A stretch of 64,000 bases of DNA from Cryomorphaceae bacterium (GTDB lineage: Bacteria > Bacteroidota > Bacteroidia > Flavobacteriales_D > Sanyastnellaceae). This document shows positions 25,829-45,479 of this stretch, piece after piece. Position 1 is the first letter of the stretch; each line of letters begins with the position of its first letter. Position numbers and translations under genes: made by a program. The notes below the pieces were generated by a model, which saw only the letters and a program-made list of their open reading frames with translations, was not told the origin of the DNA and searched no databases. Where the stretch lies: the NCBI GenBank assembly GCA_016124575.1, contig WGNM01000005.1, positions 20,118-84,117 on the forward strand, given 5' to 3'.

Positions 25829-27373
25829 ATGCGTGCATCCCATCTTAGCTATTCGCAACATCAATTGTTACCCGATATCGTTGGGCGACACCTGGCTCAA
25901 ACCAACACGTGGTCGAAAGCAGTTGCATTTCCAACCACAGAAATCGTTGAAAAAAGAAACGTCAGCTCCAACATCCGCGATGTACTCGCGAATACCCTGC
26001 TGAATCAATACGGAAACCGCGCTGTTGGCAGCGTGCGTGAGAATATTGATGCGCTGAAAGAGGACAATACGCTCACTGTAACAACCGGACATCAGCTCAA
26101 TATCTTTACAGGGCCGGCTTTTTTCATCTACAAAATCAGTCATACCATCCGTCTCGCAGAAGCGCTGGCGAAGAAATATCCCGAAAAACGGTTCGTACCT
26201 GTTTATTGGATGGCAACCGAAGATCATGATTTTGAAGAGATCAACCATGTGCACGCCTACCGCGAAAAACTGGTGTGGGATGCCCCGTCAGGCGGACCCG
26301 TCGGTAGGATGAAGACAACTGGTTTGAGCGCCCTTGCCGAAGAATTCATTGCCCTCATCAAACCCGATGAGCGTGTGGCTGAAATGCTCAGAGAATATGC
26401 GAAACAAGGCGATTTAGCGTCCGCTACACGGTACTTGGTGCATGAACTGTTTGGTGAGTACGGACTGGTTGTGCTAGATGCTGATGCGCCCGAATTGAAG
26501 ACGTTTTTTGCCGATGAAATGGTGAACGATATCGTGCATGGCAGCGCCATGGATGTGGTAGCAGCCTTAAATGGTGAGATCACTGCAGCCGGATTGTCGG
26601 TGCAAGTCAACCCCCGCAGGGTGAATTTGTTCTATTTGTCTGACGGATTGCGTTTGCGTATCGATCGAGAAGGGGAGAAGCTCGTGGCTGGAAATTACCG
26701 GTGGACGGTGGAGGAAATCGCGGAAGAGATAAAACGAAGTCCCGAAAAATTCAGTCCGAACGTGATACTTCGTCCGCTCTACCAAGAAACACTACTTCCA
26801 AATGTCGCGGTCATTGGCGGACCCGGTGAGGTATCTTACTGGCTGCAGCTCGAAACCTTGTTCGCTGCGCGCAACATCGCATACCCCGCCATTGTGATGC
26901 GTGCAGGAGGCGTGTACATTCCTGCCAACCTCGCGGCCAAGATGGAAAAACTGAAACTTACTGTTGAAGATTTTTTACAACAGCCCGACGACATCATCCG
27001 CGCCTGGCTCATGCACAACGCCGCCCAATCTGTAACCTTCGATGCCGAAATTGCTCAGCTAACATTGCTTGCCGACACATTGAAAGAGCAAGTCATAAAC
27101 ATCGATAAAAGTCTAACGGGCAAAGCAGAAGCCATGAAAACAAAGTGGCTCACCGAACTCGATAACCTATCGAAAGCAGCAGTTAAAGCCGTAAAGCAAA
27201 GCGAAGAAGTCTCGGTAAACCAAATCCGACAAATACACGAAACCCTTTTCCCCGCAAACGCCCCGCAAGAGCGCAGTCGCAACATCTTCGCCCTCAACCC
27301 CGCCATCATCACCTTCTTCTTGCAACACATAAACGTCGAAACACCCAATTTGGTGGTGATGCATGAAGAGTGA
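25829..27373 (+). CDS. bshC: Bacillithiol biosynthesis cysteine-adding enzyme
   Basis: 514 aa. TTGHQLNIFTGPAFFIYKI ... VPVYWMATEDHDFEEINH matches the BshC/YllA signature (GQQ..L.TGP.Y...K; FW.A.EDHD..EIN). Confidence 0.85.
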   Translation: MRASHLSYSQHQLLPDIVGRHLAQTNTWSKAVAFPTTEIVEKRNVSSNIRDVLANTLLNQYGNRAVGSVRENIDALKEDNTLTVTTGHQLNIFTGPAFFIYKISHTIRLAEALAKKYPEKRFVPVYWMATEDHDFEEINHVHAYREKLVWDAPSGGPVGRMKTTGLSALAEEFIALIKPDERVAEMLREYAKQGDLASATRYLVHELFGEYGLVVLDADAPELKTFFADEMVNDIVHGSAMDVVAALNGEITAAGLSVQVNPRRVNLFYLSDGLRLRIDREGEKLVAGNYRWTVEEIAEEIKRSPEKFSPNVILRPLYQETLLPNVAVIGGPGEVSYWLQLETLFAARNIAYPAIVMRAGGVYIPANLAAKMEKLKLTVEDFLQQPDDIIRAWLMHNAAQSVTFDAEIAQLTLLADTLKEQVINIDKSLTGKAEAMKTKWLTELDNLSKAAVKAVKQSEEVSVNQIRQIHETLFPANAPQERSRNIFALNPAIITFFLQHINVETPNLVVMHEE

Positions 27374-27525
27374 GGGGGTTTTTATTTATATCTAGATTGT
27401 AAGCATCCAAGAATAAGTGAAATAGGTGTGGTTGGGGTTGTGTGTGCTTCGGTTTGCTTAAAAGATATTAGCATCCATCAGCGCACCCTAATATCGCACA
27501 TACTAATTTTATAGTGATGCGTTAT

Positions 27526-27543
27526 TGGTGTATATTTACACCA
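27526..27543. promoter_or_regulatory. Inverted repeat, candidate ParD operator
   Basis: TGGTGTA-tatt-TACACCA, ending 15 nt upstream of the parD ATG. Confidence 0.4.
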
Positions 27544-27557
27544 CAACACAAAACATC

Positions 27558-27797
27558 ATGAGAAGACAAAGTATTTCCTTTACTGAGCCAAATGATGAAT
27601 GGCTTAAAAGTCAAGTTGACAGTAAAGAATATTCAAGCAAGAGTGAATTAGTTAATGATTTAATTCGTCAGGCAAGAAGTCAACAAAAGCAAATTGATTT
27701 AATTCGATTGAAGTTAGATAAGGCTGAAAAATCGGGATTTACAACTGAATCCAAATCAGAAATTTTGAAGCAATCTAAAAGTATGCTTGATGAGTAA
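27558..27797 (+). CDS. parD: Type II antitoxin, ParD/CopG ribbon-helix-helix family
   Basis: MRRQSISFTEPNDEWLKSQVDSKEYSSKSELVNDLIRQA is a typical ParD (COG3609) N-terminus. It overlaps the toxin gene by 8 nt. Confidence 0.85.
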   Translation: MRRQSISFTEPNDEWLKSQVDSKEYSSKSELVNDLIRQARSQQKQIDLIRLKLDKAEKSGFTTESKSEILKQSKSMLDE

Positions 27798-28077
27798 ATA
27801 CAAATTAAGCACTGTTGCAAAGGAAGATTTGATCCGAATTCATCATTATGGCGTCAGGCAATTTGGAATGAAACAAGCAGACAGATACTTTGAGTCTTTC
27901 TTTGTCCACTTTGAACTTATTGCAAAGAATCCACAATCATTCGAATCTGTTGATTACATTAAACCAGGATATCGACGTTGTGTTTGTGGTGTAGATAGTA
28001 TATTTTTCAAAATGAATAAAGATGTAGTGGAAATAATGACGATTATTGGGAGACAAGATCTTAATCAATTGTTATGA
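27790..28077 (+). CDS. parE: Type II toxin, ParE family
   Basis: YKLSTVAKEDLIRIHHYGVRQFGMKQADRYFESFF..IAKNP ... GYRRCVCGVDSIFFKM..DVVEIMTIIGRQD follows the ParE pattern. Confidence 0.85.
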   Translation: MSKYKLSTVAKEDLIRIHHYGVRQFGMKQADRYFESFFVHFELIAKNPQSFESVDYIKPGYRRCVCGVDSIFFKMNKDVVEIMTIIGRQDLNQLL

Positions 28078-28213
28078 AAATTTATGGAGGCTAACCCCGA
28101 TAGAACTGCTGGCTGCTCCCCTTACTTCGAAAACGGATTTGATGAAAGAGAATAGTTTAACCCCGAATTTGGGTTTACATTAAAAAGTTCGTCACACCGC
28201 CATTCCCGAAACC

Positions 28214-28437
28214 GTCAACCTATCTAAACTCCCCCTTCCATTATTCATGTTTGAGTGTGCAGACAATCAAAAGCTTTTCTCAAACAATCCCCACCTTGGG
28301 TATCTTCAAGCAGACAATAATCGCTAGCAGCCAACCTCTTCATTTTCACAGCCTACAACCTCCGCTTGATATTCAATCTCCTACCACCACAAAAACTGAA
28401 AGCCTATTCAGCAGGCTTTTCATCGATTTCATGGGCA
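28214..28437 (+). repeat. Repeat family R2, copy 1 (block 1 at 28214-28248, block 2 at 28341-28437)
   Basis: Both blocks recur after the next TA pair (29230-29468). Block 2 ends in the hairpin AAAGCCT-attcagc-AGGCTTT. Confidence 0.85.
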
Positions 28438-28533
28438 TTTTTATCGTTTTTAGTTCCCGTTAAAGCACTTTTCGATAGTTTTTGGGGTGTATATGAAATT
28501 TTGTAAATTAGCAACAGAGCAAAAATTATATGT

Positions 28534-28764
28534 ATGACATCGACGGCGATAAAAAAACAAGTAGAAGATTACCTTCCCATGCTTTCAACTAAACAGCAGG
28601 TTCTTGTTCTTGAAATGATTAAAAGCCTATTGCACGTTGATAATGAGAGCAAACGAATTACCCGGAAACAATATAACAAAGAACTTGATGAAGCGGTCAA
28701 GAGAATCGAAAAAGGGAATTCAATTTCCCATAAAGACGCTCTGAAAGAAATTGCGAAATGGTAA
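28534..28764 (+). CDS. Putative antitoxin partner of a RelE/ParE-family toxin
   Basis: 76 aa, overlapping the toxin gene by 7 nt. The C-terminal ...KQYNKELDEAVKRIEKGNSISHKDALKEIAKW resembles Bacteroidota addiction-module antitoxins. Confidence 0.6.
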   Translation: MTSTAIKKQVEDYLPMLSTKQQVLVLEMIKSLLHVDNESKRITRKQYNKELDEAVKRIEKGNSISHKDALKEIAKW

Positions 28765-29072
28765 GGTCAAGTGCCTTTAGAATTGTTTGGGATACTGAAG
28801 CCTTAAATCAGTTTAAAGAGACCTTAGAATATTTAGAAGAGCAAAGCAGTCAAGCTCCACGAATTGTTAAAAAGGCAGTTCTTGATCAAATCGCACAAAT
28901 CAAAAAGAATCCTCTTATTTTTGAAGTCGATAAACTAAAATTACCTGAAGATAAGGACTTCAGGGCTTTTATTGTTTTCAACTACAGGATCACCTATCAA
29001 GTAAAAACTGACAAGGACCAAATTCGAATATTAAGATTCCGCCATACAAGCAGAGAACCACTTGGGTACTAA
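28758..29072 (+). CDS. Type II toxin, RelE/ParE superfamily
   Basis: 104 aa. FRAFIVFNYRITYQVKTDKDQIRILRFRHTSREP is the canonical RelE/ParE C-terminal pattern. Confidence 0.82.
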   Translation: MVRSSAFRIVWDTEALNQFKETLEYLEEQSSQAPRIVKKAVLDQIAQIKKNPLIFEVDKLKLPEDKDFRAFIVFNYRITYQVKTDKDQIRILRFRHTSREPLGY

Positions 29073-29229
29073 TAGGAATGAATTGTGGGCTCAGATAATA
29101 TGCTCTAATTATAAAACCCGCTTCACGCCAGCCTCACCTCTCTTATTCAAAAATATGTATATTATTGAATTACAGTTCTGCTCATCAAAGACAGTGTCAA
29201 AAACTCCCGCCCGCCGTGAAGCTGGAGAC

Positions 29230-29468
29230 GTCAACCTGTCTAAAAACCCCCATCCATACTTCATATTCGATAGTGTATAAAGTCAAATAGCCTTTGGTAT
29301 TAGATACACACATTGGTTATCTTTAGGTTTGAAATTCATTGCATGAAATGTTCGCCAGCCGATGCCCTCTCCATTTTCACAGCTTACAACCTCCGCCCGA
29401 TATTCAATCTCTTACCACCACAAAAACTAAAAGCCTCCCTAGTAGACTTTTTATCAAAATCATAGGCA
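29230..29468 (+). repeat. Repeat family R2, copy 2 (block 1 at 29230-29264, block 2 at 29372-29468)
   Basis: GTCAACCTGTCTAAAAACCCCCATCCATACTTCAT and CATTTTCACAGCTTACAACCTCCGCCCGATATTCAATCTCTTACCACCACAAAAACTAAAAGCCT... align with copy 1 with few substitutions. Confidence 0.85.
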
Positions 29469-29522
29469 GTCCAATTCTATTCCACCTAGAAAGAAAATAC
29501 AATACAGAATCGACTCGGCATT

Positions 29523-31196
29523 TCAGTGCTTTATAAAAGCCAGGTTCAAATTGCCCTTACTTAATTGGATTATATAGGTTCCTGCAGACAAATCCACAAT
29601 TGAAATTGAAGCATTCATGCTGGTGGTTCCTTGGGCAACAATTTTACCCAAATGATCGATAATTCGGTAAGTGGAAAGTTCATTCTCACCGCTGAGGTGA
29701 ATGAAATCAGATGATGGGTTGGGGTAAATGTTTATGAGTGCTTGCGGTTCGAGGAAGTCATTCACCCCAATTGAATTACCGAAGGTGTATTGAGCCAAAT
29801 AGAGGTCGGTTAAACCGGCAGGAGCAGGTGCGGGATCATCAAGGTTTTCAGGAGCAAAATCAAAATTCTCATCGTAATTGCCTGTGATAATTACCTTGTC
29901 GCCAGATACCGCCATGCTTTTATTGCTGATAAAGTCATCTTCCCATCCGCCTACAACGAAAGAGTTAACATAGTCGAGCGACTGAGAGTACTTCACAACA
30001 AATAAATCACGACCACCATAGTTGATGTGATTGGCAAGCGGACCAGGCGAGAAAGTGCCATTGAAAGATCCGCAAACAATAATATCGTTTGAGGCGTTGC
30101 TGTGTGCACTTTTTGGTCTGCAATCGCCCCCAGCTTCCAATATATCTCCGTTAACGTAATCGCCTTCAGAAGTTAGTCTGACGAGAAAACCATTGTAAGA
30201 AAAGTTGGTTGGAATTATTTCTTCAGCAGCACTCGGGTCGAGGTCAATGTCTCCATCAAAATTCCCGACGATAAGAATGTCGCCATTGGTCAGCAGCTCG
30301 AGACCTTCACAAATTTCATTGAATTCTCCATGAAATCCTTTTGACCAAACAAGAATTCCAGTGGAATTGTATTTGGCTATATAGCCATCCTGTGCGTCTT
30401 GAGCGAGAAGAGTGGAGATAGTTCCAAATGGATCCAGGTCAATGGAAACACTGAATGATCCTACTATGACAATGTTATCGTCATCATCAACTTCAATATC
30501 TTGAATAAAACTCAGGCCATCATTTGGATTCACCCAGGCCCATATGTACTCGCCCGATGGAGAATACTTGGCCATAAAAGGACCGGAAGGATCGCCTACA
30601 AGGTTCTGTGTATTTGCACTTGGATCGAAATCACATACATTGGTAAGCGATCCGCCTACGATAATATTGCCTTCATTGTCAAGTGCTAGGGTAGATGCAT
30701 CAGCATTGCCTTCACCATTTATTGAAAAAGCAAAGTCGAATGTCCCGTCTGATAAGTAGTGGGCAATGAGCGCATCGCCTGAAGATCCGCTCGTGAATTC
30801 TGCGAGACCTTCTGGATTGGCATTGATGGTTCCCGTAAAATAGATCAATACGTAAACTCCATCATCCGCATCTACTGCTAAGTCTCTCACGTCGCCTTGT
30901 GTGCTCAATGGAAGGATGAATGCCCAAAGGTGATTGCCTTGTGAATCGTATTTCGAAATAAAAGGAGCGCTGAACAGGGAAACGTCGGATTGCAGATTTT
31001 CCCCAATCCCAGGGTCAAAATCTACATTGTCAGATCGCGATTCACCGCCCATATAAATGTTTCCTTCGCTATCACCTAAGGTGACGAAACCAGTTTCGGA
31101 ATTAAGACCGTTTACGGTAATCCCCCAGTCATTGGAATTTTGAGCTTGGCTTGCACAAACAATCAAGAGCAGCGAAAAGATTGAAAGAGATTTCAT
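29523..31196 (-). CDS. Secreted SBBP/beta-propeller-repeat protein with a T9SS type-A C-terminal sorting domain
   Basis: Signal peptide, repeated ...D..GN.Y..G.F.G..DFDP... units, and a C-terminal IYPNPSSDFIHL ... GTYIIQL sorting domain. It is the only minus-strand gene in the array. Confidence 0.85.
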   Translation of the reverse strand: MKSLSIFSLLLIVCASQAQNSNDWGITVNGLNSETGFVTLGDSEGNIYMGGESRSDNVDFDPGIGENLQSDVSLFSAPFISKYDSQGNHLWAFILPLSTQGDVRDLAVDADDGVYVLIYFTGTINANPEGLAEFTSGSSGDALIAHYLSDGTFDFAFSINGEGNADASTLALDNEGNIIVGGSLTNVCDFDPSANTQNLVGDPSGPFMAKYSPSGEYIWAWVNPNDGLSFIQDIEVDDDDNIVIVGSFSVSIDLDPFGTISTLLAQDAQDGYIAKYNSTGILVWSKGFHGEFNEICEGLELLTNGDILIVGNFDGDIDLDPSAAEEIIPTNFSYNGFLVRLTSEGDYVNGDILEAGGDCRPKSAHSNASNDIIVCGSFNGTFSPGPLANHINYGGRDLFVVKYSQSLDYVNSFVVGGWEDDFISNKSMAVSGDKVIITGNYDENFDFAPENLDDPAPAPAGLTDLYLAQYTFGNSIGVNDFLEPQALINIYPNPSSDFIHLSGENELSTYRIIDHLGKIVAQGTTSMNASISIVDLSAGTYIIQLSKGNLNLAFIKH

Positions 31197-31585
31197 GATT
31201 TGATTTGTTAACTAATTCATTTTTTGCAAGATAAGACTTTCTGCTCTTGATGCCAAATACGCCACTTTAGCAAGGCCCTGCATCACATGAGCCTTATTGT
31301 CGGTGCGTGAGTGAACTTCCCAGTGAGTGAATCCGATCTGATGAGGCGAAATTCCAGGTTTACGATTCAGACATAAATATCTTTCCTATCAACCCCTAAA
31401 TTGAAGGTGATTCCCTTGTTCCTACTTGGGCTTTTCAAATCCAAGTATACCGATCTTGTGTGCTAAACATTCGGTAGGTATTTCTTGGATCACATCCCAA
31501 TTGGGGTCTTCCCTGAAATTAGCTACTCTTAAAAAACCTTCTCAATATTTTGTTCCAAGGAAAATTGTGCTGATTCATCTGTAAT

Positions 31586-31639
31586 ACACCTTCGCAATCG
31601 CCCGGCATTCAAATCAATTGATTATTTTCATGGAAAATT
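31586..31639 (+). repeat. Repeat family R1, copy a
   Basis: The core TCAATTGATTATTTTCATGGAAAATT (31614-31639) is preceded by ACACCTTCGCAATCGCCC. Confidence 0.8.
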
Positions 31640-31740
31640 AGGGGAGTGATGGGGCATTAGACAGACATCCTTTGAGCGGAATAATGATACAATCTATTGA
31701 TTGTAAGTATTGTGTGGGCAGAAATTCGTAATTTTGTTTT

Positions 31741-31902
31741 ATGAGAACCAAACAAGAAATACTGATTTATTTGTCAGAGCTTAAAGAGCGAATAGCTCAC
31801 GAAATGCCAAAAGTTCGCAAAGAAATTCGCTTGTATGAGGAAAAGAAAGCAAATGGGCAACTAACTGAAAAACCAGTTTCTGGGCCTCAGTTTAATGTCT
31901 AA
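31741..31902 (+). CDS. Small ORF (53 aa) not in the supplied track; putative antitoxin/partner of the zeta-like ATPase
   Basis: ATG at 31741, translation MRTKQEILIYLSELKERIAHEMPKVRKEIRLYEEKKANGQLTEKPVSGPQFNV, stop at 31900-31902. It overlaps the downstream ATG (31895) by 8 nt. A TAATTTTG motif (31729-31736) lies just upstream. Confidence 0.5.
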   Translation: MRTKQEILIYLSELKERIAHEMPKVRKEIRLYEEKKANGQLTEKPVSGPQFNV

Positions 31903-32497
31903 ACCAGTATTGTTAGTTGTTGCTGGCTGCAATGGCTCGGGCAAATCTTCTTTCTCCAAGGCTTTCTCTCCAAATGATGTTGTTCCCTATGACTACGATT
32001 TAGTTTTTCTTGATTTTTACAAATCACTCATTGACAATGAACTGAGAGAGCGGATGGCTCACAATTTGTCGATTGAAGATTTACGAATCAGCATTGAATC
32101 TGCAAGATCCCAAGAGAAGAATTTCTGTTATGAAACAAATTTCAATTCTACTCCGCTATATTGGCCGACAGTTTTTAAGCGCGACGATTACCGTTTAGAG
32201 CTTGCTTTCTTCTGTTTAGATTCCATTGATAAAGCAAAAGAACGTGTTAGAATAAGAGTTGAGAATGGCGGACATTTTGTGCCTGACGCTGAAATTGAAA
32301 AGCGATATGTGTTAGGTTACAAGCATTTAAATGAATATTGGGAATTCTTTGATGCAGTGCACTTATTCGAAACCAGCGAATATGATTGCGAACCCAAACA
32401 CCTGCTGACAATTGAGCAGAATGTCCTCGTGATACTTGAAGATTTTCCGGACTATTTGATTTCTTTGATCCCGAATATTGCAGACAGATTGAAATAA
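31895..32497 (+). CDS. Zeta-toxin / COG4185-type P-loop ATPase
   Basis: 200 aa with Walker A VVAGCNGSGKSSF and the size and layout of the zeta-toxin/PezT-like 'predicted ABC-type ATPase' family. Confidence 0.7.
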   Translation: MSKPVLLVVAGCNGSGKSSFSKAFSPNDVVPYDYDLVFLDFYKSLIDNELRERMAHNLSIEDLRISIESARSQEKNFCYETNFNSTPLYWPTVFKRDDYRLELAFFCLDSIDKAKERVRIRVENGGHFVPDAEIEKRYVLGYKHLNEYWEFFDAVHLFETSEYDCEPKHLLTIEQNVLVILEDFPDYLISLIPNIADRLK

Positions 32498-32738
32498 AAT
32501 TTAGGTAACACTGCATAGGCGTCGCGAGGGTTTCTGCTTCGAAAATACACTCTCAATTCGGTAAATCTTGTCGGACATACTTGAATGAAAAATTCGCTAT
32601 GAATTGCTCGTTGTCTAGCTTTAAACTCAAAGCCTAGCTGGAAGTCTATTAATTAATTTCATGCGTTTTTTTCCTGATTTTGGGGCTTTTGAAAACATTT
32701 TTTGATATTTCCTGCAAATTAAAGTGTATTTGATAACA

Positions 32739-32807
32739 CCAAATCACCTCCAAATCACCTCCAAATCACCCAGTGTTCAGTTCAATTGATTATTTTCAGT
32801 GAAAATT
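32739..32807 (+). repeat. Repeat family R1, copy b, including three tandem 11-bp units
   Basis: CCAAATCACCT x2 plus CCAAATCACCC (32739-32771), then the core TCAATTGATTATTTTCAGTGAAAATT (32782-32807). The core contains the palindromes TCAATTGA and ATTTTCA-g-TGAAAAT. Confidence 0.85.
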
Positions 32808-32865
32808 TTAACAGCAGGTAGATGATATAACAGATTGCCTTTGGCTGAAATTTAAAACAATACAA

Positions 32866-33408
32866 ATGAGTAAAAAATTAACACTAGTATTCTTTCTAAT
32901 TCAATCATTTACTATGAATGCTCAAGAAAAAGACCCATGGACAGTCTATATGACACCTTCTTCAGTTCATGAATTGTTTTCAAGGTACGAAGGGGAGTTT
33001 CAAATGGAAATGGAAATGAATGGACTAAAAGAACCTGTTCTAATTGGTTCTTCTCACAAAATGATCTTAGGTGGTCGATTCCTAGAATTAAAACAAAAAG
33101 GTAACATGATTGGTATGGAATACGAATCCATTTATACCGTTGGATTTAATACTATTGATAGCACCATTTCAATGACTACGATCACAAATATGGGGACAGG
33201 GACTTTAGCCCTTCACGGGGAATGGAACGAAAGCACAAAGACCGCAACACTTCATGGGAAACTAACTAATCCTGTTTCTAAACAAAGCATTTACGTTAGA
33301 CAGACTCTCGAGTTTGTCGATGACAATACGATTCTTATTCAAAGCTTTGACCATGAAGAAGATAAACAGGAAAAGAAAACTGTGGAATATAAATTTGTTA
33401 GACTATAG
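32866..33408 (+). CDS. Secreted DUF1579-like protein
   Basis: 180 aa with a signal peptide. The pattern ...HELFSRYEGEF... GGRFLEL ... G.W is reminiscent of DUF1579. Recognised from memory only. Confidence 0.45.
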   Translation: MSKKLTLVFFLIQSFTMNAQEKDPWTVYMTPSSVHELFSRYEGEFQMEMEMNGLKEPVLIGSSHKMILGGRFLELKQKGNMIGMEYESIYTVGFNTIDSTISMTTITNMGTGTLALHGEWNESTKTATLHGKLTNPVSKQSIYVRQTLEFVDDNTILIQSFDHEEDKQEKKTVEYKFVRL

Positions 33409-33580
33409 AAATACCCATTGCCTAATAGAGCCTAAAAAACATTGAGCAATCAGTGCTTTGATAGAGTTTTCTTTTTTTATCAAACTTTGTCTCGAAGGAC
33501 AATTTTGTAGCGTCAAAATGTCCTCCGTTTCAACCTAAGCTCGCTAGCTGCCATTTTAACTTAAACGTGCGACAAAATCA

Positions 33581-33594
33581 GCGATTTGTGTTAA
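33581..33594. promoter_or_regulatory. Direct repeat GCGATTTGTGTTAA, candidate AraC-family operator (copy 1, upstream of the AraC gene)
   Basis: The same 12-14-mer recurs at 34583-34597 upstream of the SDR genes. Confidence 0.3.
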
Positions 33595-33636
33595 TGAACT
33601 TCAGAAAGACAAAGTAATTTTGTGGAAAGAACACGC

Positions 33637-34545
33637 ATGAGCGAGGAGATTATTCATTCGAGATCAATTACTGAAATCAGGGCTGTCTTTGGTTTGGACA
33701 AGCCAACACACCCCTTAATTACAATACTTGATACACAAAAACTCGCTTATGGGGAAGAAACTGTTGGTAAACGATTCGCCTCTGATCTATACTGCATCGC
33801 TCTAAAGGATTCAAGTTGCGGAATTGAATACGGACGAAACTCGTATGACTTTGATGACGGAGTTTTAATTTTTACCGCACCTAAGCAGGTAATTACAGTG
33901 AAGAAACCCCAAGCACTGAATCAAATAAAAGGTTGGATGTTATATTTTCATCCCGACCTTTTTAGGAATACTCCCCTTGGTTCAAAAATTGATTCCTACA
34001 ATTTTTTTAACTACGAAGTGCATGAAGCTTTGCACCTGTCTATTCATGAACAAAATACCCTCAATCAAATTGTTCAGCTCATTCAAGATGAAATCAGAGA
34101 GCGAATAGATAATCATAGTCAGCAAGTATTGGTTTCGAATATTGAGTTGTTACTCAATTACAGCAAACGATTTTACGAAAGACAATTCAATACTCGCTCC
34201 GCGAGCCACACGGATATTGTTTCCAAAGTTGAAGTGCTGCTAAAAGAATATTATACAGCCAACAAGCTCATCGAAAAAGGACAACCCACTATCCAATATT
34301 TAGCAGAAAACTGCCATTTATCAGCAAGTTATTTGAGTGATCTTTTGAGCAAAGAAACAGGTCGTTCTGCTAAAGACCACATCAATGATTTTATTATCGA
34401 CAAAGCAAAACACTTGTTACTCGGATCTACCCATTCGATTAGTGAAATAGCTTATACTTTAGGCTTCAATTACCCCCATTATTTTGGTAGGCTGTTCAAG
34501 CTCAAAACAGGAAAAACACCCCAAGAATACAGGCAGTTGAATTAA
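33637..34545 (+). CDS. AraC-family transcriptional regulator
   Basis: C-terminal double HTH (IQYLAENCHLSASYLSDLLSKETG ... ISEIAYTLGFNYPHYFGRLFKLKTGKTPQEYR). Confidence 0.9.
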   Translation: MSEEIIHSRSITEIRAVFGLDKPTHPLITILDTQKLAYGEETVGKRFASDLYCIALKDSSCGIEYGRNSYDFDDGVLIFTAPKQVITVKKPQALNQIKGWMLYFHPDLFRNTPLGSKIDSYNFFNYEVHEALHLSIHEQNTLNQIVQLIQDEIRERIDNHSQQVLVSNIELLLNYSKRFYERQFNTRSASHTDIVSKVEVLLKEYYTANKLIEKGQPTIQYLAENCHLSASYLSDLLSKETGRSAKDHINDFIIDKAKHLLLGSTHSISEIAYTLGFNYPHYFGRLFKLKTGKTPQEYRQLN

Positions 34546-34550
34546 ATCGA

Positions 34551-34580
34551 AGGAAGCAAATGAAGCTTCCTTTCGCTTTT
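34551..34580 (+). terminator. Rho-independent terminator after the AraC gene
   Basis: Stem AGGAAGC/GCTTCCT with a 7-nt loop, followed by TTCGCTTTTC. Confidence 0.6.
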
Positions 34581-34582
34581 CT

Positions 34583-34597
34583 GCGATTTGTGTTTAA
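34583..34597. promoter_or_regulatory. Direct repeat GCGATTTGTGTTTAA (copy 2, upstream of the SDR pair)
   Basis: Matches 33581-33594 apart from one extra T. Confidence 0.3.
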
Positions 34598-34670
34598 CCT
34601 TTCTTTTTTCGTGTTACTCCGCTCACTCGTTCAGTCGGATATTTGATTTCATCAAAGCATTATAAAAAAG

Positions 34671-35546
34671 ATGGAACATAAAATTTTAGTAACAGGTGCA
34701 AGTGGAGCTTTTGGAAGTTTAACTTGTATTCAATTAGCGGAAAACGGTCATAAAGTGGTCGGGACATTGCGTTCATTAAAAGGGAAAAACGAAGCCATCG
34801 CAAATGAGCTAAAAGCAAAAGGTGTAGCATTGGTTGAAATGGATGTGACCAATGAAGAAAGTGTAAATGCAGGAGTAAATTCAGCCATAGAACAGATGGA
34901 TGGATTAGATACTGTTTTCAACAATGCAGGAATTGGAGCTAATGGAATTCTTGAATGCTTTACCGTAGGTGATATCCAAAAAATGTTTGACGTAAATGTT
35001 TTTGGAGTTCAACGAGTATTGAGAGCTGTTTTACCTTTTTTGAGACAACAAGGAAGGGGAACGATCATTCACACTTCAAGTTGTATCGGTAGAGTAACCA
35101 CACCATTCTTGGCTTCATACTCGGCTTCAAAATACGCTTTAGAGTCTTTGGCGGAAGGCTACCGTGCAGAACTTTCAGGATTTGGAATTGAATCGTGTAT
35201 AATAGAACCAGGCGGATATCCAACGGGTTTTATGAGTGGAATGATAACGCCAAGCGATAACGAAAGGATGAAGCAGTATGGCGAAATGGCAAGCCTTCCT
35301 GAAACCTCAATTGATGGATACGTTGCTTATGTGGAATCAATCCCCGAACAAAGACCTGAGCGAGTTGCTGAAGCCTTAGTCAATCTGGTAAATACACCTT
35401 TTGGTGAAAAACCCTTTAGAACCGTTGTTGATTTTTCTGGGTTAAAACAACCAATAGAAAACTATAATCAACTGTTGAACGAGACTACAAAAGCAATTTA
35501 CACTGCAAATGGTGTGGCTAATTTACTAAACCTAAACAAAGACTAA
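34671..35546 (+). CDS. SDR-family oxidoreductase
   Basis: Contains TGASGAFG, NNAG and the catalytic YSASK. Confidence 0.88.
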   Translation: MEHKILVTGASGAFGSLTCIQLAENGHKVVGTLRSLKGKNEAIANELKAKGVALVEMDVTNEESVNAGVNSAIEQMDGLDTVFNNAGIGANGILECFTVGDIQKMFDVNVFGVQRVLRAVLPFLRQQGRGTIIHTSSCIGRVTTPFLASYSASKYALESLAEGYRAELSGFGIESCIIEPGGYPTGFMSGMITPSDNERMKQYGEMASLPETSIDGYVAYVESIPEQRPERVAEALVNLVNTPFGEKPFRTVVDFSGLKQPIENYNQLLNETTKAIYTANGVANLLNLNKD

Positions 35547-35548
35547 AA

Positions 35549-36361
35549 ATGAGCAAAACCGTATTAATTACAGGAGCAAGCAGTGGCATCGGAAAAGCAA
35601 CTGCTATTCATTTTCAACAACAAGGATGGAACGTAATTGCGACAATGCGTTCCCCTGAGAAAGACACGGAATTAAACAAGTTGGAAAACCTACAACTTGA
35701 AAAGTTAGATGTCCTTGATGTATCAAGCATTGAACAAGCTATCCTTAACGGCATTGCAAAATTTGGCAAAATTGATGCCTTGGTTAACAACGCAGGTTAT
35801 GGTGCTTATGGTCCTTTGGAATCTTTTCCAAGAGAAAATATCATCAGACAATTCAACACGAATGTTATCGGCTTAATGGATGTTACCAAAACCATTATCC
35901 CACATTTCAGACAAAATAAAGACGGTGTTATTGTCAATATTTCTTCCATCGGTGGTCAAATGACTTTTGCATTGGGTTCTCTTTATCACGGAACCAAGTT
36001 CGCCGTTGAGGGGATTTCAGAATCTTTACACTTTGAAATGAAAGAGATAGGTGTGAAAGTTAAAATTGTAGAACCCGGATTTATTGCCACTGATTTTGGT
36101 AGTCGTTCTTTCGATTTTCAAGCAGGAAATATTGAAGATTATCAACCATTGATCGGAGCATTAATGAAACAATGGCAAAATCCGAATAACATTGTTTCGC
36201 AGCCAAGTTTAGTGGCTGAAGTAATTTTTAATGCAGTAACTGACGGCACGAACCAACTGAGATACCGAGCAGGAGAAGATGCAGATTTCTTACTCGACAG
36301 TAGAAAAAAAATGACAGACACCGCGTTTTTTGAAATGATGAATAAGCAATTGGGGAATTAA
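35549..36361 (+). CDS. SDR-family oxidoreductase
   Basis: Contains TGASSGIG, NNAG and YHGTK. It starts 2 nt after the previous SDR gene. Confidence 0.9.
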   Translation: MSKTVLITGASSGIGKATAIHFQQQGWNVIATMRSPEKDTELNKLENLQLEKLDVLDVSSIEQAILNGIAKFGKIDALVNNAGYGAYGPLESFPRENIIRQFNTNVIGLMDVTKTIIPHFRQNKDGVIVNISSIGGQMTFALGSLYHGTKFAVEGISESLHFEMKEIGVKVKIVEPGFIATDFGSRSFDFQAGNIEDYQPLIGALMKQWQNPNNIVSQPSLVAEVIFNAVTDGTNQLRYRAGEDADFLLDSRKKMTDTAFFEMMNKQLGN

Positions 36362-36480
36362 AAACGGTACCTAGCTGCAAAGCTTCCTTGCGGCTCGCAA
36401 CCCCCACCAAAAACGCATGCTGAATGAAAACAATCGCTGCAGCGAACTATGAGGTTTTAATAAGTAATTTTTGTATTGCA

Positions 36481-36510
36481 CAGCAGCTATCTCGGCTGCT
36501 GTCTTTCTTG
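36481..36510 (+). terminator. Rho-independent terminator after the SDR pair
   Basis: Stem CAGCAGC/GCTGCTG with a 7-nt loop, followed by TCTTTCTT. Confidence 0.6.
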
Positions 36511-36568
36511 ACTGTTTTTGGAGATGCAACAGCACTGTTTGCGTTTGAAAGTATATAGGGTGCTTTTT

Positions 36569-36632
36569 CACCTCCAAATCACCGTTTTAATCACCCTACC
36601 TTCATCTCAATTGATCATTTTCATTGCAAAAA
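36569..36632 (+). repeat. Repeat family R1, copy c
   Basis: CACCTCCAAATCACC..TTAATCACCC, then the core TCAATTGATCATTTTCATTGCAAAAA (36607-36632). Confidence 0.75.
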
Positions 36633-36890
36633 GACGCTCTTTCACAACCTATATAATTTCGGTAAATGCCTACCCAATGCACCCGCGAAAATGCTATTTT
36701 CATTGCTAACAGGATATCGATATCGAATTTATTGAGCCTTCGTTTTTAGCTTTCTCGGTGGCGTTTTTCATGCAGTGAAAATAGATATCTAAAGTTTCAA
36801 TTTTAAGGGTTCATGGTGACCTAATATCAATGTTTTGGATCATGTATCTTTGAACCAAAGTAATTTGATCCTTCAATCCATCGCTGAATC

Positions 36891-37964
36891 ATGGCCTCTG
36901 TCAAACCATTGATCTTTTTAGTAATCCTCTTAAATCTGTCGGTTTCCTGCGCGCAATCTACATCCAACAAGGAGGGGAGCACTGTTGCTGAAACAAGAAG
37001 CATTGCGAAGTCAGGGGCGGTATCCGATACGCTGAAGTTCACCTCAGACATCCGTTCCATATTTCAAGATAGCAAAGGGAATTATTGGTTGGGCAGCCAC
37101 CAAGAAGGGGTGTGCATGTTCGATGGTACATCATTCAGATACTTCACAGTAAACGAGGGTTTGACAGACCAACAGGTGCGTGCAATTCAAGAAGATGCTT
37201 TTGGAAACATGTGGTTCGACACAGCCAATGGTGCAAGCATGTACGATGGTGCAAAGTTTACGAACTATCCGTCCGACGCGAATAACCCTCAATCGGAGTG
37301 GAAGGTAAGTGCCGAAAACTTGTGGTTCAATGCGGGCGTGAATGAAGGGGTTCGTGTGTTCGATGGTGAGCGAATGAACTACTTTTCTTTCTCGAAAACA
37401 GCGAGTGTTGAACCGTTTTCGGCTCATCAGGTAACCGGTATTTCAAAAGGGGTTGATGGAAAAGTATGGATAGCAACATACGATGATTTGTTCTGCTTCG
37501 ATGGGGAGAAACTTTCCATGCTCGATGGACTTTCTGCGGTATTTCTAGAAGGTGATTATTTGCACATTCGCAGTGTGCTGGCTGATTCAAAAGGCAGGTT
37601 GTGGATTGGGAACAATGGAATTGGTGTTCTCCTTCATTATGGGGAGAAAACGGTTAACTTTTCTGATGAAATGGGATTGATTGATGCTGAGAGCAAGCGA
37701 GATGGCGACAAATCTCCAAGTGGAACGTTAGAACATGTCTTTGCAATTCATGAAGATGCAGTAGGTAACATCTGGTTTTCCGATAGAGATACAGGTGTTT
37801 GGAGGTTTGATGGTGAAAAGATGTCCAACTACACAATTAGCGCACAGACTTCAAATCCAATGGTGTGGTGCATCTATTCCGACAGCAATGGCAATTTGCT
37901 TTTCGGCGCAGCAGATGGAAATGTATACAAATTCAATGGTGATTCGTTCAGTGTGTTTTTCTGA
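36891..37964 (+). CDS. Lipoprotein with two-component-regulator propeller (Reg_prop) repeats
   Basis: Lipobox LSVSCAQ and repeated D..GN.W.G...G...FDG units. It is a paralogue of 40678..41766. Confidence 0.75.
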   Translation: MASVKPLIFLVILLNLSVSCAQSTSNKEGSTVAETRSIAKSGAVSDTLKFTSDIRSIFQDSKGNYWLGSHQEGVCMFDGTSFRYFTVNEGLTDQQVRAIQEDAFGNMWFDTANGASMYDGAKFTNYPSDANNPQSEWKVSAENLWFNAGVNEGVRVFDGERMNYFSFSKTASVEPFSAHQVTGISKGVDGKVWIATYDDLFCFDGEKLSMLDGLSAVFLEGDYLHIRSVLADSKGRLWIGNNGIGVLLHYGEKTVNFSDEMGLIDAESKRDGDKSPSGTLEHVFAIHEDAVGNIWFSDRDTGVWRFDGEKMSNYTISAQTSNPMVWCIYSDSNGNLLFGAADGNVYKFNGDSFSVFF

Positions 37965-40677: not shown

Positions 40678-41766
40678 ATGAGCGTAAAAATCTGCTTGTT
40701 TTTTAGTCTGCTAGCCATTCTTTCGTCGTGCAAAAGTCAACCCGTAAACAACGGAGGTAATACCGATGAAAAGGGGGCGCAAGTGGCTTTTGGCGACACC
40801 GTAAATCAACTGAGTGATCAGCTCTGGTATGCGTTTCAAGATTCCCGAAACAATTACTGGTTTGGCAGCAACGGAGAAGGGGTGTATTGTTACGATGGCC
40901 AAGCAATTTTGAACTTCACAACAAAACATGGACTATCGAACGACACCATACGACAGATCCAAGAGGATAAAAAGGGAAACATGTTCTTCTCAACGATGCA
41001 GGGGGTGAGCAAATATGACGGACAAAAATTCACCGACCTGCAGGCGATAGAAAGCACAGATTGGAAGCTGGAAGACGATGATTTGTGGTTCTTTATCTTA
41101 GGCAAAAGTCACGAACAAGGAACTTATCGTTATGACGGAGAAAATCTATACCATTTGCAGTTTCCCAAGCATTACCTTCATGAGGAGCTTATGGAGCGGG
41201 TTGCTGGTACTTTTTTTAGTCCGTACGAAGTTTATAGCATTTACAAAGATCGCACGGGTGCAATGTGGTTCGGCACCTCCTTTTTTGGAGCTTGCAGGTT
41301 CGATGGACAATCCATTAAATGGATGTACGAAAACGATTTAACGATTACACCGCATGGTGGCACCTTTGGCATTCGCTCGGTCTTTGAAGACAGAGAAGGG
41401 TCATTCTGGATTTGCAACACCTTGAATCGCTATGTGTTCGACTTTGAAAAAACCCAGGAGAGCGACAGATTGCAATATGAAAAGATCAAAGGAATTGGAA
41501 ATGCGGAGCTTTTAGATGGTGAAGATTACATCTACTATTCGCACATTCTAGAAGATAGTGAAGGCAGTATTTGGCTAACAACCTGGCAACTTGGTGTCTA
41601 TAAATTCGATGGTGTCAACATCACGAATTATAAAGTGAAAGATAATGGGGTCGATGTAAATCTAGTCTCGATGCACAAAGACAAAAATGGCAACCTTTGG
41701 CTAGGCACTCCGAACAATGGTGTCTTTAAGTTCAACGGCGCTTCATTTGAGAGATTTGTCCCATAA
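40678..41766 (+). CDS. Lipoprotein with two-component-regulator propeller (Reg_prop) repeats
   Basis: Lipobox LSSCKS. It aligns by eye with 36891..37964 (NYWFGSNGEGVYCYDG / NYWLGSHQEGVCMFDG; IRQIQEDKKGNMFF / VRAIQEDAFGNMWF). Confidence 0.75.
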   Translation: MSVKICLFFSLLAILSSCKSQPVNNGGNTDEKGAQVAFGDTVNQLSDQLWYAFQDSRNNYWFGSNGEGVYCYDGQAILNFTTKHGLSNDTIRQIQEDKKGNMFFSTMQGVSKYDGQKFTDLQAIESTDWKLEDDDLWFFILGKSHEQGTYRYDGENLYHLQFPKHYLHEELMERVAGTFFSPYEVYSIYKDRTGAMWFGTSFFGACRFDGQSIKWMYENDLTITPHGGTFGIRSVFEDREGSFWICNTLNRYVFDFEKTQESDRLQYEKIKGIGNAELLDGEDYIYYSHILEDSEGSIWLTTWQLGVYKFDGVNITNYKVKDNGVDVNLVSMHKDKNGNLWLGTPNNGVFKFNGASFERFVP

Positions 41767-43810: not shown

Positions 43811-45043
43811 TTGGACAAAAATGAACTCATACCGAATTTATTCAGAATTGAATACAGCAAAATTGTTGCGGTACTTTGCAAGCGGTATGGATTGGCAAGT
43901 ATTGAACTTGCGGAAGATTTTGTAAGTGATTCTTTCTTGAAAGCTGCTGAAACTTGGAAATTAAAAGGAATACCAGACAATCCATCGGCTTGGTTGTATA
44001 CTGTTTCAAAAAACAATGCAAAGGATTATTTTAAGAGGAATGACCATTTTCATTCCCAAATCGCTATGGAACTAAGTCGCCAAATCGAATTTGAAATTTT
44101 TGAAATCGACCTTTCTGAAGATAACATTCAGGATAGCCAATTGAAAATGTTGTTTGCAGTTTGCAACCCAATAAACACCAATGAATCGCAAATTACACTT
44201 GCACTAAGGATACTATGCGGATTTGGCATTGAGGAAATTGCCAATGCACTTTTAACTAATAAACAAACTATCAATAAAAGGATTTCTCGAGCAAAAGAAA
44301 GGTTAAGGACTGGTAAAATTGAAATATTGTTTCCATCGAGTAATGAATTAAGTGAAAGATTAGACAATGTACTACACATTCTTTATTTGCTTTTTAACGA
44401 AGGCTATTATTCTTCCACGGCTTCAACAACGGTTAGTAAAGATTTATGTTTCGAGGCAATGCGAATGCTTTACATTTTAACCAAAAACGACAAAACAAAT
44501 CTGCCCAAAACAAATGCATTGATGGCATTGTTCTGTTTTCATACTTCAAGATTTGATGCACGGATAGACCAATTTGGTCAACAGATTTTATACGACAATC
44601 AAGACAGGACAAAATGGAATTTCGAACTTATCGCAAAAGGTGAATGCTATCTTGAAAAGTCTGCATGTGGAAATCAAATTACCAAATATCATTTGGAAAC
44701 TTTGATATCATTTTGGCACACTCGAATTGAATTTGACCCAAAAGTAAAATGGGATAGCATACTGCAATTGTACAACAGACTTTTGCAAATCGAGTATTCT
44801 CCTGTTACAGCACTTAACAGAACGTATGCTTTGTCAATGGCACAAGGAAAAGAAATAGCGTTAAAAGAGGCGTTAAAAATTGAATTGAGCAACAATCATC
44901 TTTATCATTCATTGTTGGCAGAATTGTTTAATGGTTTAAATCAGAAAAAGCAAATTAAGCATCTTAAAATCGCATTGACACTAACGAATAATGAAAACGA
45001 CAAGAGTATATTAAACGACAGACTAACAAAAGCCAGCAGGTAA
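43811..45043 (+). CDS. ECF-like sigma factor with a long C-terminal domain (COG4941 / SigJ-like type)
   Basis: 410 aa. A sigma-2-like region (NPSAWLYTVSKNNAKDYFKR) and a region 4 HTH (GFGIEEIANALLTNKQTINKRISRAKERL) are followed by about 230 aa of helical extension. The YciI-family neighbour is typical for this class. The start codon is TTG. Confidence 0.78.
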   Translation: MDKNELIPNLFRIEYSKIVAVLCKRYGLASIELAEDFVSDSFLKAAETWKLKGIPDNPSAWLYTVSKNNAKDYFKRNDHFHSQIAMELSRQIEFEIFEIDLSEDNIQDSQLKMLFAVCNPINTNESQITLALRILCGFGIEEIANALLTNKQTINKRISRAKERLRTGKIEILFPSSNELSERLDNVLHILYLLFNEGYYSSTASTTVSKDLCFEAMRMLYILTKNDKTNLPKTNALMALFCFHTSRFDARIDQFGQQILYDNQDRTKWNFELIAKGECYLEKSACGNQITKYHLETLISFWHTRIEFDPKVKWDSILQLYNRLLQIEYSPVTALNRTYALSMAQGKEIALKEALKIELSNNHLYHSLLAELFNGLNQKKQIKHLKIALTLTNNENDKSILNDRLTKASR

Positions 45044-45479
45044 CAGCAGTTGCAAGAAATGCCGAAAAAAGTTCAAAGTTCACGTTTATCTTTCGCAAGA
45101 CATTTTTTTTTACCAGAAAATATTCAGTTCCGAAGTTCGCCACTTCTTGTAGCTGCGACACGTTGGTTTGTTGTCATTGGCGGTGAGATTCAAGTAAAGT
45201 ACAACTCCTAAGTTCAGAAAGGAACGCAAAGATCATCGCTGTCGTTCTTCCCTGTAAAGCAATCGGGAAGTCGATTTTGGCCTTTTGCTCACTCCTGCTT
45301 CCTTGCTGCGGCAAGTGCCCATTGAATGGGTAAATGGTTTTGGTGGTTTTTCTATCGCCTGAGTTGAATTCAACCATCTATTCACAATCAACTTTCCCTT
45401 CAATCTAACTATCTTTCATTCAAGGTGGCTGAATTATTGTTGTAGAAGCAGCTAAATCAATCATCTTGATGTTGTCCAA

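Follow-up and report, generated by a model that had tools for sequence, protein, structure and literature searches.

The window analysed here is a stretch of 64,000 nucleotides (nt) of contig WGNM01000005.1 from a Cryomorphaceae bacterium. This paper will focus on R2, a repeated, non-coding unit of ~250 bases which is located in the window among toxin-antitoxin (TA) gene pairs. The region from 27420 to 36900, immediately after bshC, forms an island of low GC content (33-42% vs 45-51%). In this island, two full copies of R2 have been identified, as well as a third copy which is partial and decayed. The features around R2 are the following:

27473..28214, plus strand: TA1 gene cassette, with parD at 27558-27797 and parE at 27787-28077 (Pfam ParD and ParE)
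28086-28214, plus strand: attC-like site of TA1, decayed, with an inverse-core-like box GGCTAAC and the 3' end ...CCCGAAACCG
28215..28478, plus strand: R2 copy 1, with block 1 at 28215-28248, the middle at 28249-28340, the core at 28341-28406 and a hairpin at 28399-28419
28385..28489, both strands: dyad at the 3' end of R2 copy 1, CACC-A-CAAAAACT / AGTTTTTG-G-GGTG, enclosing the AAAGCCT/AGGCTTT hairpin
28479..29230 (start perhaps 28460), plus strand: TA2 cassette, with an antitoxin of 76 amino acids (aa) at 28534-28764 and a ParE/RelE toxin of 104 aa at 28758-29072
29104-29230, plus strand: attC-like site of TA2, 134 bits with the covariance model
29231..29475, plus strand: R2 copy 2, with block 1 at 29231-29264, the core at 29372-29437 and a mismatched hairpin at 29430-29450
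32622..32732, plus strand: third R2 copy, partial and decayed, 3' part of the unit, downstream of the zeta-toxin-like TA3 pair (31741-32497)

In a first-pass annotation of the window, R2 had been described as two conserved blocks separated by 90-110 nt of unrelated sequence. Both blocks were recovered at the coordinates given there, and the pattern of each has exactly two matches in the 64 kb, where shuffles expect none. The stretch between the blocks, however, was found to be homologous. It is 63% identical between the two copies, with one 14-nt indel, and can also be aligned to an unrelated contig, L130, so that it represents diverged homologous DNA. Each full copy follows a TA pair, as had been noted before, and together they form direct repeats on either side of TA2.

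Overall, the two full copies are 74% identical by pairwise alignment, and the pair is the top direct repeat in the repeat search (family D1), with a start-to-start spacing of 1031 nt. Identity amounts to 83% in block 1 and to 91% in the 66-nt core (28341-28406), and is 62% on the 3' side of the hairpin before it drops to about 46%, the background level. In copy 2, the homology to copy 1 fades at ~29475. The core is better conserved than the remainder of the unit (Fisher p = 1e-4). The third copy begins at AAACTNAAAGCCT and was detected by nhmmer with E = 0.009 and 0.0017; its local alignment has z = 6.2 (p < 0.002), a score reached by none of 500 shuffles. A fragment of block 2 that had been reported at 33541-33560 does exist as a 19-mer, but it is at chance level (E about 4).

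No further copy of R2 with a likeness of at least 80% was identified in the whole metagenome run containing the contig, and the window region is present only in DNA runs from one study; a search for RNA runs yielded none. Scanning genome, metagenome and viral contig collections with the pattern of the core gave no match. With the block-1 pattern, 29 matches to viral contigs were obtained; all of these were chance matches, for which nhmmer gave no extension. R2 has no similarity to the repeat family R1, and in an all-against-all comparison of the intergenic regions of the island only R1 and R2 emerged as repeats.

The nature of the DNA in front of each R2 copy was revealed by the relatives of the two TA pairs. 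For TA1, 80 relatives are present in metagenomes, with up to 88% amino-acid identity. Most of these relatives have 27505-28075 in common with the window, and one locus, L100, shares 27520-28215. In L099 and L101, the TA1 3' element adjoins other cassettes, and the alignments of this element in L099, L100 and L101 all diverge after ...GAAACCGT. At their other end, the cassettes of TA1 relatives begin with G^TTAGCAACC (^ marks the break) after varied attC-like 3' ends, and ...CG^TTAGYAACC junctions after varied palindromes were identified at 10 loci upstream of TA1 relatives. In the window, TA1 starts with A^TTAGCATCC between 27472 and 27473. The relatives of the TA2 toxin share 72-79% amino-acid identity. 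On the nucleotide level, L085-L090 are 78-80% identical to the window from 28481/28488 to 29071/29231; in L089 and L090 the homology reaches 29231, where R2 copy 2 begins. In these two loci the TA2-type cassette has homologous sites of ~130 nt on both sides, with the form TTATAAC-TCCCGCTTCACGTCAGGCGGGA...TCCCGCCCGCCGCGAAGCTGGGGAC-GTTATAA. The three aligned TA2-type sites, including the one at 29104-29230 of the window, have a long imperfect stem in common and diverge directly after GACGT.

The covariance models used for these sites were built from the sites themselves, from three and from five of them. The alignment of five sites contains a stem of 26 pairs, nine of which show compensatory changes, and its covariation score was reached by 1 of 500 shuffles. 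Pairing in this stem is 77%, compared to 27-43% when the partners were slid as a control. With the five-site model, 35 matches at E <= 0.01 were obtained in 84 loci, each in the orientation of the genes and with a maximum of three in one locus. RNAalifold returned no structure for the mixed attC-like alignment, and gave a structure for one subfamily that was split off. The bottom-strand fold of the TA2 site of the window has z = -3.3; the TA1 site of the window scores 8.3 bits with the family covariance model and has no fold. Folded sites with TAAC/GTTA boxes, G^TT breakpoints and co-oriented arrays are the marks of cassettes, and they were identified for TA1 as well as for TA2. TA1 and TA2 are discrete mobile cassettes ending in attC-like folded sites.

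The left edges of the R2 copies, 28215 and 29231, are the positions at which the homology to the relatives of TA1 and TA2 ends ('CG^TCAACCT'). Each copy begins at the crossover of a different site family, and the two junctions read ...GAAACCG^TCAACCTATC and ...GGAGACG^TCAACCTGTC. R2 hence has the 5' end of a cassette, though the junction is G^TC in both copies of the window. In L130, positions 1392-1514 are homologous to block 1 and the middle of R2 (nhmmer E = 0.0014), with a block 1 that is 78% identical to the one of copy 2. This R2-like stretch directly follows a third, short attC-like site, TCATAAC...GCAAACC^TTCAATCTGTCTAAAAAC. Some 280 nt further on, a TA1-type cassette begins at a ...CTGCCG^TTAGCAACC junction, with no open reading frame (ORF) between. 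The presence of one R2 5' end behind three different attC-like sites indicates a separate unit which was joined to them where cassettes cross over. The other relatives of TA1 and TA2 have no R2, which is therefore not part of those cassettes. The earlier proposal that R2 is a cassette boundary or a recombination site holds insofar as both copies begin at a junction. The site of recombination is not R2 itself; sites of this type are represented by the attC-like palindromes that directly precede the two copies, at 28086-28214 and 29104-29230.

Taken as a whole, R2 has a slightly better than even chance of being an ORF-less, cassette-like unit or an inter-cassette spacer of a decayed, integron-like array without an integrase. 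The array itself is best read as having inserted behind bshC, in the genome of a Bacteroidota member from a hot spring. The site-specific recombination that moves the cassettes would also have moved R2 or put it in place, and the two copies would go back to a duplication or re-capture of a cassette, after which they diverged to about 74% identity. A tyrosine recombinase of the Pfam families was not found in the 27 ORFs of the window that were scanned, which include all of 250-450 aa, nor was one present near the TA1 relatives among the matches listed (25 of the 84 Pfam families). By the scan of these ORFs, the window has no complete integron, defined by IntI and attI, and the array fits only the category of integrase-less arrays resembling clusters of attC sites lacking integrases (CALINs). 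That both copies have GTC where GTT would be canonical, that the attC-like site of TA1 is eroded and that the scanned ORFs include no recombinase all suggest that the array is frozen and decaying.

The right end of R2 is less clear. For copy 1, the relatives of the TA2 cassette point to two candidate edges, between 28459 and 28460 (CCCG^TTAAAGC) or between 28478 and 28479 (G^TTTTTGG). The former aligns to the start of the cassette in L089, TTATAATTAAAGC. As single-stranded DNA, the 105-nt dyad of copy 1 has fold z-scores of -5.1 (plus strand) and -3.7 (minus strand), and none of 200 shuffles was as stable. This dyad may be R2's own recombination-type site, and the hairpin of copy 1 would then be a part of it or an incidental terminator, rather than the 3' end of a small RNA (sRNA). 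The dyad fold is absent from copy 2, which has no right arm, and from the copy in the TA3 flank. By eye, block 2 of R2 and the 3' flank of TA1 had each appeared similar to the arm of the TA2-type attC-like site; in shuffle tests both similarities were at chance level.

Several observations weigh against R2 being a cassette-like unit. By alignment and by covariance models, R2 matches neither of the two attC-like families. Its first bases are TCAACC and not the canonical TTRRRY, and R2 contains no GGTTGAC, the box that would be the reverse complement of its own start. Only copy 1 has the dyad, which runs into the beginning of the TA2 cassette, a stretch common to the TA2 relatives; the right boundary of R2 is uncertain, and with it R2's own site. 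In all DNA searched there are only two full copies, so that the mobility of R2 rests on three junctions. The direct repeats flanking TA2 could also have been produced by homologous recombination. Finally, the difference between 91% identity in the core and 63% hints at selection on the core or at a gene-conversion tract, for which the cassette-like nature of R2 alone gives no explanation.

It is unlikely that R2 is instead a terminator or insulator placed between self-promoted TA cassettes, with a C-rich region that would load Rho like a Rho utilization (rut) site and a hairpin that would act as a pause site or an intrinsic stop. The windows of the two cores are the second and third most C-over-G-rich 80-mers in the 64 kb; their C/G counts, 32/6 and 29/5, place them at the 99.9th percentile or higher. 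The C-rich cores are located on the sense strand, 260-300 nt past the stop codons of TA1 and TA2, the RNA of the plus strand is unstructured, and TA2 has a promoter-like motif of its own downstream of R2, read from the sequence as TTTG...TAAATTAG. In its excess of C over G, its lack of structure and its position past an operon and before a hairpin, R2 would thus resemble known Rho-dependent rut regions. Composition is nevertheless the sole argument for this function, and the 91% conservation of the core is not needed by a rut site and sets R2 apart from such regions. On the plus strand the hairpin is followed by a poor T-tail (TTTTCATCG), and the terminator scan flagged the hairpin of copy 1 on the minus strand only. 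In copy 2 the stem of such an intrinsic terminator would carry a mismatch on the plus strand, in copy 3 the hairpin is likewise broken, and the R2-like unit of L130 has no C-rich core. A role as terminator or insulator could also be the cargo of an ORF-less R2 unit. A C-over-G-rich 80-mer similar to the R2 core is located at 36569-36648, within copy c of R1, with C/G counts of 26/5 and rank 6.

A further explanation, likewise improbable, is that R2 belongs to an immobile backbone at the edge of the array and was duplicated when TA2 arrived by homologous recombination, of the Campbell type or unequal, between two molecules that each carried R2, so that the direct repeats are a scar. The repeats do bracket exactly one cassette, at a spacing of 1031 nt, R2 is private to this genome in the pattern scans and in the source metagenome, and gene conversion or a crossover could account for the tract of 91% identity in the core. 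The left edges, however, match to the base the crossover of two attC-like families, which would not result from homologous recombination. In addition, the 5' module of R2 is located behind a third attC-like site in L130, and the partial copy after TA3 has no matching partner.

R2 could also be a mobile and functional non-coding cassette, the core and hairpin of which would serve as a cis insulator or as the source of a regulatory RNA, and which integron-like arrays of Bacteroidota would shuffle between self-promoted TA cassettes for their transcriptional independence. This combination of mobility and function is regarded as quite improbable.

The first-pass annotation had suggested a structured sRNA 3' end travelling with the TA cassettes, with an Rfam scan as a check. 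The hairpins of both full copies match the description given there: copy 1 has a perfect 7-bp stem, AAAGCCT/AGGCTTT, and copy 2 has one mismatch, which from the sequence would be a C-A pair in the RNA of the plus strand and a G-U wobble in that of the minus strand. The suggested RNA itself found no support. The scan of R2 gave no match to any Rfam family, and the folds of both halves on both strands did not differ from shuffles (z -1.6 to +1.8). The hairpin is intact in one of the three copies; the middle base of its 3' arm is G, A or T in the three copies, with no compensation. By eye, no promoter motif of the Bacteroidota type (TAnnTTTG) was seen upstream of R2 on either strand. Close relatives of the TA1 and TA2 cassettes are devoid of R2, which shows that R2 does not travel with them. 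A small regulatory RNA on either strand that ends at the hairpin is consequently rated as very improbable, although the conserved 66-nt core adjoins the hairpin and the minus strand, besides turning the mismatch of copy 2 into a wobble, continues into a T-run. All copies of R2 come from one genome, which leaves covariation no basis.

That R2 is a relic or a live gene for a small protein is almost certainly wrong, since the frame of 82 codons that is open in copy 1 (28215-28460) runs for no more than 19 codons in copy 2 as well as in L130 and has no homologues among 1.84 billion representative proteins, and since the synonymous changes in three of four core codons that can be read in another frame contrast with nearly exclusively non-synonymous changes outside 21 core codons, in G-poor DNA which has few stop codons through composition alone. 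No reading frame is open in both copies. Both ORF calls over R2 ought to be removed from the annotation.

Downstream of copy 2, a gene is located on the opposite strand:

29523..31196, minus strand: gene for an SBBP-repeat protein sorted by the type IX secretion system (T9SS), with a Pfam Por_Secre_tail domain

The homology of R2 copy 2 fades 48 nt before the stop of this gene, and the stop is 73 nt from the hairpin of copy 2, which is followed by a T-run on the minus strand. Judged by this arrangement, the hairpin and T-run could be the terminator of the T9SS gene. R2 is absent downstream of the orthologue in L084, which is the closest homologue (58% identical). In L084, the T9SS SBBP gene is followed by a gene for a propeller lipoprotein in the same direction, like the one at 40678-41766 of the window. 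In the window, the T9SS gene is inverted and embedded in the island when compared to L084, which places a rearrangement breakpoint probably near 29476-29522.

At the other end of the island, the homology to L082, the BshC of which is 80% identical, ends at position 27419 of the window, and the contig of L082 ends 168 nt past bshC. The contigs of the two closest relatives, L082 (3766-3884) and L083, with BshC proteins of 80-83% identity, end either inside bshC or some 170 nt behind it, which hints at variable or repeat-rich DNA at this position of their genomes. In the genome contig collection, the closest BshC relatives are at most 42% identical. Between the end of the BshC-relative homology and the start of TA1, 53 nt (27420-27472) are located in a strongly G-rich region; the 80-mer at 27367-27446, enclosing that stretch, is the fourth most G-over-C-rich of the window. 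The 53-nt stretch might be a remnant of the site at which the array entered.

The promoter regions of both TA pairs, at 27525-27545 and 28484-28495, contain GGTGTATAT. For TA1, this motif is part of the palindrome GGTGTATATTTACACC, which is conserved in about 80 relatives and is probably the operator for ParD. The R2 copy in the TA3 flank ends in GTGTATTTG, which resembles the promoter motif GGTGTATAT.

AttC-like sites have also been identified apart from R2. An isolated site on the plus strand at 45035-45170 directly follows an ECF-sigma/DUF6596 gene (43811-45043) and carries the boxes GGTAAC...CGTTGG. The TA1-type model gave this site 26.9 bits (E = 4.6e-4) and the TA2-type model gave it E = 0.023, and a further cassette junction, beyond the island, may be located here. 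In metagenome contigs (L095, L100, L101, L103, L131 and L164), TA1-type parDE cassettes are organized in arrays of several cassettes, in which 3-4 kb contain two or three attC-like sites, each ~135 nt long and all in one orientation. The T9SS and CHU_C neighbours in these contigs suggest that the hosts are Bacteroidota.

TA cassettes are among the commonest functions of integron cassettes, ORF-less cassettes are known, and integrons have been reported in Bacteroidota (PMC8618304). Complete integrons with IntI are rare in this phylum (PMC9024848). The closest resemblance of R2 is to the ORF-less or duplicated cassettes of sedentary chromosomal integrons and CALINs, for example the TA-rich superintegrons of Vibrio. 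Like these, R2 is short, contains no ORF, starts at a G^T crossover and occurs in diverged copies among self-promoted TA cassettes with no integrase nearby, and its same 5' end is located behind different sites. In contrast to them, R2 starts with TCAACC instead of TTRRRY and has no recognisable attC of its own with a matching inverse core. The array further differs from classical integron arrays in its Bacteroidota host, in its erosion and in being mixed with the private repeat family R1.

The sites upstream of R2 resemble attC sites of the Vibrio cholerae repeat type in their TAAC/GTTA boxes, their compensated imperfect stem, their length of about 58-150 nt, their co-orientation with the genes and their G^TT break. 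R2 itself is unlike attC by sequence and by covariance model, and a palindrome, of a non-canonical kind, is present in copy 1 only.

Bacteroidales are also said to contain recombinase-associated arrays in which small cassettes are separated by repeats; these arrays, named rAID-1 and reportedly presented by Ross and colleagues in 2019, are described as integron-like. Compared to rAID-1, no recombinase or immunity genes were seen here.

Alone, R2 is a minor element, and its value is that of a marker with base-precise cassette junctions. Together with the relatives of the TA pairs, the left edges of R2 show that the island is an integron-like array in a phylum for which classical integrons are reported to be rare, and R2 documents an ORF-less unit joined to three different recombination-type sites. 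If a cis-regulatory function were true, R2 would illustrate that cassette arrays can carry cargo that is non-coding.

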